DNA of 55,602 nucleotides. It comes from a virus. Its lineage: Duplodnaviria; Heunggongvirae; Uroviricota; Caudoviricetes. The notes under the pieces were generated by a model, which was given only the letters and a program-made list of their open reading frames with translations, was not told the origin of the DNA and made no database searches. This document shows positions 31,168 through 35,902 of this stretch, in pieces (the first letter of the stretch is position 1; the number at the start of each line of letters is the position of its first letter). The stretch is from positions 1 to 55,602 of the IMG/VR virus record IMGVR_UViG_2923286960_000003, one strand, 5' to 3'. Both the position numbers and the translations under genes were made by a program.

Positions 31168-33105
31168 GTGACTCTTAAACGGGCCTGTTCCCTGCTGACG
31201 GTGAAATCCTTCAGTGAGGATGAACGAGTGATCACCGGGATTGCGTCAACGCCTTCTCCGGATCGGGATGGTGACATCCTGGAGCCGGAGGGCGCGGAGT
31301 TTGGCAGTGCGATCCCGTTTCTCTGGCAGCATGACCATTCCCGCCCGGTGGGGCAGTGTACGGTGCGCCGGGTCAGCGAAGGGCTGGAAATCACGGCAAC
31401 ACTGGTGAAGCCCGTACCGGATATGCCGTCGCAACTGGCTGCCCGGCTGGATGAGGTCTGGGCGGCCATTAAGACCGGGCTGGTCAGGGGGCTGTCCGTG
31501 GGCTTCCGTCCCCATGAATACACCTTTCTGGACGGAGGCGGACTGCATTTTCTGCGCTGGGAACTGATGGAGGTGTCTGCCGTCACCGTGCCCGCGAATG
31601 CGGAATGCACCATCCGGACCATTAAATCTTACGACCGCCCGTTTTCTGCCGCGTCCGGCAACCGGAAACCGGTGGTGAAAATCGCATCTTCTGCCGGCGC
31701 TGCGGCACAGTCAACAACCGTTTTTCATAAGGAAAAGACCATAATGAATATTGGCGAACAGATTAAAAGTTTTGAAAACAAGCGTGCAGCGCTGGCAGCC
31801 TCCCTTGAGGAGGTCATGACCAAAGCCGCAGAGGAAGGGCGCACGCTGGATGTGGAGGAGGAAGAGCATTACGACAACACCGCAGCGGAAATCCGTCAGG
31901 TGGATGCGCACCTGAAGCGCCTGCGTGAACTGGAAGCCGGTAAGGCCGCCACGGCGCAGCCGGTGAAACAGGCCGGTAACGGGAATGTGGCCGCGGTGGC
32001 TTCTGCGCCGGTGATCCGTGTGGAGCAGAAACTGGATAAGGGGATTGGCTTCGCCCGCTTTGCCAAATCGCTGGCTGCGGCTAAAGGCGTCCGATCTGAA
32101 GCCCTGGAAGTGGCCCGTCGTCAGTATCCGGATGACAGTCGTCTGCATCATGTCCTGAAATCGGCAGTGGGCGCGGGGACCACCACGGATCCGCAGTGGG
32201 CAGGCAGCCTGTCTGAATATCAGGAATACGCACAGGACTTTATTGATTACCTGCGTCCGCAGACCATTATCGGGCGATTTGGTCAGGGCGGGATCCCTGC
32301 ACTTCGTCAGGTGCCGTTCAATATCCGTGTGCACGCCCAGGTGTCCGGCGGTGCTGCCGGCTGGGTGGGTGAGGGTAAGGCAAAACCCCTGACGAAGTTT
32401 GATTTTGAATCCATCACCTTCAGTCATGCGAAGGTGTCGGCCATTGCGGTACTGACGGAAGAATTGATCCGTTTTTCCAGTCCGGCTGCTGATGCACTGG
32501 TCCGTAATGCGCTGGCGGAAGCGGTGGTGGCGCGTCTGGATACAGACTTTGTGGACCCGAAAAAAGCCGCAGTGGCAGATGTCTCCCCGGCGTCCATCAC
32601 CCATGATGTGAAGGGCACGGCATCAACCGGTAACCCGGATGCGGATGCAGAGGCTGCGTTTGGACAGTTTGTGGCAGCAAACCTGCAGCCCACCGGTGCG
32701 GTCTGGCTGATGTCCAGCACCAATGCCCTGGCACTGTCCATGCGTAAAAATGCGCTGGGTCAGAAGGAATACCCGGACATGACCCTGCTGGGTGGCTCCT
32801 TCCAGGGGCTGCCGGTGATTGTCTCCCAGTACGTGGGTGACCAGCTGGTGCTGGTGAATGCCCCGGATATTTATCTGGCGGATGACGGCGGCGTGGCAGT
32901 GGATATGTCCCGCGAGGCATCACTGGAAATGCAGTCTGAGCCGGGCGGCGACAGTACCACGCCGTCCCCGGTGGAGCTGGTTTCCATGTTCCAGACAGGC
33001 AGCGTGGCCATCCGTGCGGAGCGCTGGATCAACTGGCGTCGTCGCCGTACCGCGGCGGTGGCGGTGATCACCGGAGTGAACTACGGCAGTGCGTCCGGCG
33101 GCTGA
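31168..33105 (+). CDS. fused prohead protease (HK97/S78-like) and HK97-fold major capsid protein
   Basis: N-terminal ~170 aa protease-like (ITGIASTPSPDRDGDIL, FLWQHD, EVSAVTVPAN); C-terminal ~400 aa capsid-like; coiled-coil linker. Confidence 0.75.
   Translation: MTLKRACSLLTVKSFSEDERVITGIASTPSPDRDGDILEPEGAEFGSAIPFLWQHDHSRPVGQCTVRRVSEGLEITATLVKPVPDMPSQLAARLDEVWAAIKTGLVRGLSVGFRPHEYTFLDGGGLHFLRWELMEVSAVTVPANAECTIRTIKSYDRPFSAASGNRKPVVKIASSAGAAAQSTTVFHKEKTIMNIGEQIKSFENKRAALAASLEEVMTKAAEEGRTLDVEEEEHYDNTAAEIRQVDAHLKRLRELEAGKAATAQPVKQAGNGNVAAVASAPVIRVEQKLDKGIGFARFAKSLAAAKGVRSEALEVARRQYPDDSRLHHVLKSAVGAGTTTDPQWAGSLSEYQEYAQDFIDYLRPQTIIGRFGQGGIPALRQVPFNIRVHAQVSGGAAGWVGEGKAKPLTKFDFESITFSHAKVSAIAVLTEELIRFSSPAADALVRNALAEAVVARLDTDFVDPKKAAVADVSPASITHDVKGTASTGNPDADAEAAFGQFVAANLQPTGAVWLMSSTNALALSMRKNALGQKEYPDMTLLGGSFQGLPVIVSQYVGDQLVLVNAPDIYLADDGGVAVDMSREASLEMQSEPGGDSTTPSPVELVSMFQTGSVAIRAERWINWRRRRTAAVAVITGVNYGSASGG

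Positions 33106-35902: not shown

Follow-up and report, generated by a model that had tools for sequence, protein, structure and literature searches.

Phage HK97 carries its portal (gp3), protease (gp4) and capsid (gp5, with its delta domain) as separate genes in that order, and its adaptor is gp6. In other described systems, such as lambda C/Nu3, P2 gpO and herpesvirus UL26/UL26.5, the long product bears an N-terminal protease and a shorter in-frame internal product shares its C-terminus; nested protease/scaffold genes of this kind provide, by their layout, for a few copies of the protease to join the assembly. Here we describe the head module of a 55,602-nucleotide (nt) stretch of Caudoviricetes DNA (IMG/VR record IMGVR_UViG_2923286960_000003, positions 1 to 55,602), which we call the window throughout. 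It contains two long open reading frames (ORFs), one of 645 amino acids (aa) that joins a protease to a capsid, and one of 861 aa that joins a portal to a second protein, named X hereafter. Our overall reading, to which we give a probability of roughly 0.78, is that this is a common head block in which both long ORFs are fusions of neighbouring genes.

In the ORF table and translations, the genes follow one another as small (TerS) and large (TerL) terminase subunits, protease-capsid ORF, a small ORF, portal-X ORF and gp6-like adaptor (Table 1). The order that a preliminary description of the window had given (terminase, 645-aa ORF, 861-aa ORF) was confirmed there, the two long ORFs (31168-33105 and 33317-35902) together spanning the stated 31168-35902. 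The module shares with HK97 an HK97-family portal, an S78 protease, an HK97-fold capsid with an N-terminal coiled-coil scaffold domain, a gp6-like adaptor, a gp7-like head closure, a gp10-like protein and an HNH endonuclease beside the terminase. It differs in that the portal comes after the capsid and not before the protease, in that protease and capsid occupy one ORF, and in having gene X and the small ORF in addition. The preliminary description was right about the separate portal, protease and capsid genes of HK97, but the organisation that it called atypical is so only relative to HK97: the order TerL, protease, capsid, portal, X, adaptor was kept in 110 of 110 related viral contigs (80 + 30) and is invariant across a large, sequenced family of enterobacterial prophages and phages.

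As a whole, the window is a lambdoid prophage; over 26 kb it shares 98.75% identity with the ompW-site prophage of strain PCN033. Its block 29443-36225 matches 94 phage records at 90-99.8% identity, including the Shiga toxin (Stx) phages 2851, WGPS6, YYZ-2008, 1717 and JLK-2012 and many Stx1a and Stx2c phages. The long-tailed Stx/lambdoid phages 2851, WGPS6, phi330 (Pankowvirus), BP-4795, YYZ-2008 and 1717 and the PPompW prophages have the same module in the same order and with the same repeats (90-99.8% nt identity), the repeat copy number varying between records. The 4735-nt region spanning both long ORFs was found in 1255 of 5426 complete E. coli genomes, at a median of 5 places per genome, and many of the matches are 100% identical (e.g. 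E2348/69, NCTC86 and PCN033). Deposited annotations call the long ORFs 'major head protein/prohead protease' and 'portal protein', and full-length PHROG families exist for both proteins (617 for the one of 645 aa; 2271, with 859 positions, for the one of 861 aa). The head module is a real, ordinary, widespread and already sequenced block of lambdoid (Pankowvirus-like) E. coli prophages, and its layout, domains and repeat cannot be chance.

The 861-aa ORF had been described as a portal-like protein with a repeat-bearing C-terminal extension. Its portal part was borne out by Phage_portal (PF04860) at aa 54-382 (272.6 bits, cut-off 39.1) and by TIGR01537 over aa 45-388 (349.4 bits, cut-off 112). 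Solved portals (8cez and 9lbn) align only within aa 43-420 and, because the HK97 portal 8cez aligns only to aa 45-401, about 400 C-terminal residues of the ORF are extra. The whole ORF exceeds the ~390-430 aa typical of the family, whereas the 454-aa portal portion alone is typical, and a 454-aa portal is a separate coding sequence (CDS) in AP012536, LC567829 and BP-4795. Many phage records are one base shorter than the window across the repeat region and have two 'portal' CDSs annotated there. As an example, Stx2a_1447 and Stx2_EH2201 have a 454-aa portal CDS and a 407-aa CDS starting MTERELSII, with a 4-nt overlap between them, and the sole difference at the junction in the alignment is GGGGGG in the window (34662-34667) against GGGGG in these two records. 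The G run lies 11 nt upstream of the ATGA at which the portal stops and X starts in relatives with five Gs (G5). The one extra G in this tract (G6) puts the 454-aa portal in frame with X.

Portal and X are likewise separate, with the 4-nt ATGA overlap, in BP-4795 and in Salmonella phage FSL SP-016, and they lie in different reading frames in 67 of 74 related viral contigs. In the phage records read, the overlap suggests translational coupling. BP-4795 and most Stx1a/Stx2c phage records differ from the window in being G5, with portal and X separate, while 2851, WGPS6 and YYZ-2008 are fused G6 like the window (judged by match lengths and the WGPS6 annotation). The two genes are separate in phi330 too, but with a 30-nt gap and without the ATGA overlap. 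At positions 5239-8872 of the phi330 record (L085, PV189401), the X, gp10-like and major tail genes are each split into two CDSs, which look like frameshift errors in a manually assembled Sanger genome, not biology. A census of the junction in IMG/VR viral contigs gave 71 G5 and 40 G6 (n=111), G5 on many diverse flanking haplotypes and G6 on few. From these comparisons we conclude that the split portal/X came first and that the fused allele of the window, though common, is derived. Thus, the domain assignments, the repeat and the gene order of the preliminary description stand, and its atypicality and its portal 'extension' do not: the latter is instead a canonical 454-aa portal and an independent gene X, joined by a one-base G insertion.

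Homologues of X point in the same direction. Searching for homologues with the extension at first gave only partial, near-identical proteins of E. coli. With a 440-aa query (aa 422-861) that included 33 portal-tail residues before X, HMMER then retrieved 5561 clusters (50% identity) at E<=0.001 from the full set of 1.84 billion cluster representatives. The best 150 clusters are mostly proteins of 250-600 aa, matched at their C-termini. Among 149 representatives checked, a portal domain was present only in the E. coli cluster and in P0210, X standing alone in the other 147, and the homologue P0121 (54% identical) starts exactly at the X Met. The position of X between portal and gp6-like adaptor is conserved, the adaptor always following directly in the loci of relatives; in the window X is not a stand-alone gene, owing to G6. 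By its homologues, X is an independent gene family.

It could be argued that the 861-aa ORF is a single genuine portal with an evolved, repeat-bearing extension, and that the split versions are frameshifted pseudogenes. PHROG 2271 is a full-length family, the O157 Stx phage records AP012530 and AP012540 annotate the split portal/X as 'portal protein (pseudogene)', and one diverged clade (7 of the 74 related contigs) encodes a stable, natural one-ORF portal-X of 1100-1250 aa. However, in the split form portal and X meet in a clean ATGA stop/start overlap whose Met is conserved. Isolated phages of two genera have this form, as do the 67 contigs mentioned above, and it sits on many diverse haplotypes where G6 sits on few; the stand-alone homologues of X, P0121 among them, speak against a single portal too. 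We regard this explanation as very improbable. Less credible still, and close to negligible, is that the long ORFs arose from errors in sequencing or assembly (a miscalled homopolymer or an overlooked stop codon). The portal-X fusion does hang on one base in a homopolymer, yet many independent complete genomes carry the 4735-nt region at 100% identity, the phage 2851 record matches it at 98.5%, and G6 was present in 40 of the 111 viral contigs.

The coexistence of both states (71 G5 and 40 G6) could also mean that the G tract is a programmed or phase-variable switch, in which slippage yields portal, X and portal-X in a set ratio, as in the tail chaperones G/GT, or in which the population toggles. 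Four haplotypes identical over ±200 nt hold both G5 and G6, and a -1 slip on GGG_GGG in the G6 allele would lead to a stop three codons later, near the native portal end. Against this, the tract does not conform to the canonical X_XXY_YYZ heptamer, no stimulatory structure was identified, 5-6 Gs are short for efficient transcriptional slippage, and in more distant relatives the tract is absent and the genes are still separate. In each of the mixed haplotypes the minority state is a singleton (1/12, 1/12, 1/7 and 1/5), and the mixtures may stem from repeated slippage or from homopolymers misread in the sequencing of draft assemblies. A dedicated switch seems to us a long shot, and we retain the reading of a split ancestor and a fused derivative.

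Since a stable fused clade and the full-length PHROG 2271 exist, the G6 allele of E. coli is not necessarily defective. Several G6 genomes were deposited as phages (2851, WGPS6, YYZ-2008 and vB_EcoS-783R2), and phage 2851 is said to be infectious. In the natural-fusion clade, the C-terminal domain of X shows a nonsynonymous divergence (dN) of 0.10-0.25 and a ratio to synonymous divergence (dN/dS) of 0.05-0.12 in the 10 of 21 pairwise comparisons with estimable dS (1.4-2.7); synonymous sites in this clade are at or near saturation, and dS was saturated and not computable in the remaining 11 pairs. The low dN/dS argues that purifying selection still acts on X when it forms one chain with the portal. 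Most of the seven contigs retain the ancestral X Met (M-I-T/S-E-R-E) in frame (it is absent in L056), an acidic, proline-rich linker is inserted ahead of it, and no ribosome-binding motif was present in the sequence before it. X has been fused to the portal C-terminus at least twice. In T4, portals with C-terminal GFP or Hoc fusions give active phage (review PMC9026906).

X itself is predicted to be fibre-like, with an N-terminal helix, a stalk of 0-6 units of 54 aa and a tip of tandem CBM5/12-like modules. Over its N-terminal 50-75 residues X is conserved and helical, following M-T/N-E/D-R-E-I/L-x-I-I/L. The stalk corresponds to the 54-aa repeat of the preliminary description, which had counted about 3.4 copies; Tandem Repeats Finder gave a 162-nt period and 3.3 copies, in frame, with 95% matches and no indels. 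Each unit is made of a 25-aa and a 29-aa helical half-unit, both with P-x-P-x-D-G-(K/R) followed by a helix, and the units differ mostly synonymously (4-10 nt vs 2 aa). Comparing copy number among relatives, as had been proposed, we found that X in E. coli relatives measures 245 + 54n aa, with n from 0 to 6, in both G5 and G6 alleles. Distant homologues without a portal domain range from 136 aa (P0397) to 862 aa (P0124, with roughly 25 half-repeats), and fused portal-X proteins reach 1237 aa (P0210). Judged from these sequences, the stalk is extremely length-variable across the family. Collagen repeats (PF01391) end some of the distant homologues examined (which included P0124, P0128, P0129 and P0388), and suggest trimers. 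X is also acidic, with an isoelectric point of 4.9 overall and 4.4 in the repeat zone.

In the alignment, conservation within X is highest over the last ~140 aa. Single-sequence AlphaFold2 modelling of the whole extension was uninformative, with a predicted local distance difference test score (pLDDT) of 42, while the C-terminal 170 aa with a 100-sequence alignment gave an all-beta domain at pLDDT 90.5. Foldseek searches of this model against the PDB and BFVD agreed with each other, giving fold similarity to solved CBM5/12 domains and to tail-fibre folds, with many collagen-repeat fibre proteins among the BFVD matches. The Pfam CBM_5_12 profile scored 19.1-21.0 bits in the window, under its cut-off of 26.2, and 29.8 bits in P0125, other homologues falling below the cut-off. 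Searching the PDB by sequence or profile gave no X homologue beyond isolated CBM5/12 domains, and Pfam, NCBIfam and PHROGs assign no function to X. The names that X carries in databases, 'portal protein' and 'gp6-like head-tail connector', are without domain support, and PHROG 1289 is mislabelled 'portal'. CBM-tipped or collagen phage fibres have been described (Agrobacterium phage 7-7-1, the Milano fibres and Pa193 gp47), but X, unlike them, is a head-module gene flanked by portal and adaptor and does not lie among tail genes.

Because X is always encoded beside the portal and has been fused to its C-terminus at least twice, the portal vertex is its most likely site of action. The C-terminal crown of solved portals points into the capsid. 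A tentative extension of our reading, which we hold to be rather doubtful, is that X is an uncharacterised, widespread, portal-associated virion protein, a CBM-like-tipped fibre tethered to the interior-facing end of the portal, and that in E. coli the G5/G6 tract toggles it between a free and a fused form.

We now turn to the other long ORF, which starts with GTG and has an AGGAGG motif 5 nt upstream. Peptidase_S78 (PF04586) matched aa 48-152 with 34.7 bits (cut-off 21), and TIGR01543, the HK97 proheadase equivalog, gave 46.4 bits, below its cut-off of 59; by these scores the protease domain is a diverged member of the S78 superfamily. Its translation contains the motifs LWQHDH and GLSVGF, whose His and Ser would be the catalytic residues by comparison with HK97 gp4. 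Downstream, Phage_capsid (PF05065) matched aa 386-635 (52.7 bits, cut-off 24.2) and TIGR01554 matched aa 204-584 (78.3 bits, cut-off 27.5). The protease-like N-terminus and capsid-like C-terminus reported before were thus both recovered above Pfam cut-offs, and domain annotation, the check proposed at the time, supports the protease, capsid and portal assignments alike. The same protease and capsid in one ORF occur in 64 related loci, with a median of 663 aa. The long protease-capsid ORFs of relatives start mostly with ATG, and we rejected on this ground the idea that a GTG start is a general device to hold the level of the protease fusion low.

The origin of this ORF can be read from a set of GC-rich relatives (L206-L212, L221, L222 and L243, viral contigs with a GC content of 0.62-0.68), in which protease and capsid are separate genes and the order TerL, protease, capsid, portal, X, adaptor is kept. 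In L243, L208 and L209 the protease ends with ...VVFLNS* or ...VVYLNP* and the capsid gene begins 10 nt later with MNLQEQIKRLME. In some of the GC-rich relatives both genes are in the same frame, with only a stop codon and the 10-nt spacer between them, an apparent intermediate showing how the enterobacterial fusion arose. Met193 of the window (ATG at 31744) carries the same motif as these capsid starts (MNIGEQIKSFEN): MNxxEQIK, the start of the separate capsid gene in the GC-rich relatives, where it reads MNLQEQIK. The 645-aa ORF is an older fusion of two genes, and its Met193 is the capsid start codon in the unfused relatives.

A conserved internal in-frame start with a ribosome-binding site, as in nested genes of the lambda C/Nu3 type, is found at 31744. 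A 5-nt Shine-Dalgarno core lies 3-17 nt upstream of the homologous Met in 57 of 60 distinct fused ORFs, against a background of 1.2% of codon positions within the same 60 ORFs. The core is encoded through different residues and frames: AAA GGA (K-G), AAG GAA (K-E), CAG GAG GGC (Q-E-G) and TTG GAG GCA (L-E-A). Because it is kept through different codons and frames, selection would act on the RNA signal and not on the protein, and the conservation of the core upstream of Met193 implies that the capsid protein is probably also made alone. The locus would then probably give two products, a full-length protease-scaffold-capsid and a scaffold-capsid from Met193.

This arrangement can be accounted for if the stop codon between an S78 protease gene and a capsid gene was lost, and the capsid's own ribosome-binding site and ATG were retained. 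As a shell component, the full-length product would bring its protease into the prohead, and the shorter one would be an ordinary scaffold-capsid protein. If HK97, lambda C/Nu3 and herpesvirus UL26/UL26.5 are a guide, the protease would afterwards cut off both itself and the scaffold domain. The window differs from lambda C/Nu3, P2 gpO and UL26/UL26.5 in that the shared C-terminal part is a capsid with a scaffold domain, not a free scaffold, and in that its second product is predicted from comparison.

Alternatively, only the full-length protease-scaffold-capsid could be made, each subunit's protease cleaving itself off, with the internal ATG and Shine-Dalgarno core as relics. The ORF is uninterrupted in all 64 loci, actinobacteriophage genes bear the accepted name 'Major capsid and protease fusion protein' (PMC9671004, PMC6606914), and NCBIfam models protease-capsid fusions in NF045541. 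These proteins have the same single-ORF domain architecture as ours, which scored 54 bits against the NF045541 cut-off of 525 and by that measure is not a member: it belongs to a different lineage. A rough volume estimate also indicates that ~415 copies of the 31-kDa internal part could fit a T=7 prohead. One would hardly expect a relic, however, to survive in 57 of 60 diverged ORFs by way of different codons and frames with a background of 1.2%. We consider the relic scenario unlikely, though much less so than any of the alternatives for portal-X, and favour two products from a fused gene.

Several points weigh against the picture drawn so far. The natural fused clade and the full-length PHROG 2271 show that a fused portal-X can be a native state. 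A fibre-like, CBM-tipped, length-variable X suggests an external fibre, yet the portal C-terminus is expected to be interior. Initiation at Met193 is deduced from conservation among related, non-independent sequences, and the Shine-Dalgarno/ATG motif could linger unused for a while after fusion. At the protein level, the status of the fusion and nested products rests on sequence comparison: the literature yielded no virion proteomics for any phage with this head module, the phi330 paper mapping only the proteins of short-tailed phages and the FSL SP-016 paper containing none.

Around the two fusions, the 73-aa small ORF overlaps the portal start by 55 nt and has a homologue at the same place in most related contigs; a Pfam search with it gave no match. 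Between terL and the protease-capsid ORF, directly upstream of the Shine-Dalgarno of the latter, a GC-rich hairpin followed by a T-run (31129-31156) resembles an intrinsic terminator. Relatives have a similar T-rich stretch (TCGTTTCTGGAGG) at the equivalent position, and the element may modulate the expression of head genes versus terminase. An HNH endonuclease gene (28227-28592; Pfam HNH, PHROG 589) lies just upstream of TerS, a pairing with the terminase that is typical of HK97-like cos packaging modules. Beyond the adaptor come head-closure, gp10-like, tail-terminator and major-tail genes (Pfam, PHROG). The major tail protein (ORF 37299-38150) has a C-terminal Ig-like domain (37434-38150; Pfam Ig_3, Ig_2 and I-set above cut-offs) and also matches a PHROG named 'Hoc-like head decoration'. 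In the late regulatory region, two adjacent tRNA genes (21281-21440) were called tRNA-Met (CAT) and tRNA-Arg (TCG) by ARAGORN. The near-identical PCN033 copy annotates the pair as tRNA-Ile and tRNA-Arg, which makes a lysidine-modified Ile tRNA the probable identity of the CAT tRNA.

Table 1. Coordinates of the head-module features in the window.
Feature	Position	Strand	Basis
Terminase small subunit (TerS)	28883-29446	+	Pfam Terminase_2, PHROG 641
Terminase large subunit (TerL)	29443-31104	+	Pfam TerL_ATPase + TerL_nuclease, PHROG 9
Protease-scaffold-capsid fusion ORF, 645 aa, GTG start	31168-33105	+	Pfam S78 + Phage_capsid, full-length PHROG 617, TIGR01554
S78 (HK97-type) prohead protease domain, aa 48-152	31309-31623	+	PF04586
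Internal Shine-Dalgarno core AAGGA and in-frame ATG (Met193)	31729-31733; 31744-31746	+	Sequence read
Probable nested capsid gene (delta/scaffold domain + HK97-fold capsid), 453 aa	31744-33105	+	TIGR01554 from aa 204; Phage_capsid aa 386-635
Small conserved ORF, 73 aa	33150-33371	+	PHROG 829, function unassigned there
Portal-X ORF, 861 aa	33317-35902	+	PHROG 2271, full length
Canonical HK97-family portal portion, aa 1-454	33317-34678	+	PF04860, TIGR01537
G6 homopolymer; extra G relative to G5 in relatives joins portal and X	34662-34667	+	Alignment, sequence read
Gene X, 407 aa, PHROG 1289; begins at Met455, in frame with portal here	34679-35902	+	ATG within ATGA of G5 relatives
Tandem array, 162 nt x 3.3 (54-aa unit)	34904-35436	+	Tandem Repeats Finder
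Conserved C-terminal beta-rich domain of X, tandem CBM5/12-like modules	35471-35899	+	
gp6-like head-tail adaptor (Ad1)	35899-36225	+	Pfam Phage_connect_1, PHROG 40

The protease-capsid fusion as such is of an already known kind, and the findings matter mainly for annotation and for calls of prophage integrity. About one complete E. coli genome in four carries the module, usually several times over, and long-tailed Stx phages have it as their head module. Several Sakai prophages were scored as portal-defective in a published prophage table (PMC2669165); if the split state is normal, as the comparisons suggest, some such calls may be wrong. Of moderate interest are the possible use of the G tract and the nested start as regulatory devices, and the function and location of X. 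For phage assembly, the module raises the questions of whether a protease is delivered to the prohead as a capsid-fusion subunit beside separately translated capsid, and what role a CBM-like-tipped, fibre-like protein has beside, or fused to, the normally interior end of the portal. Should X indeed be a portal-tethered virion fibre, the annotations 'portal' for X and pseudogene for the split form may misjudge prophage intactness, and either X would be a new internal head protein or the portal C-terminus would reach outside at the portal vertex.

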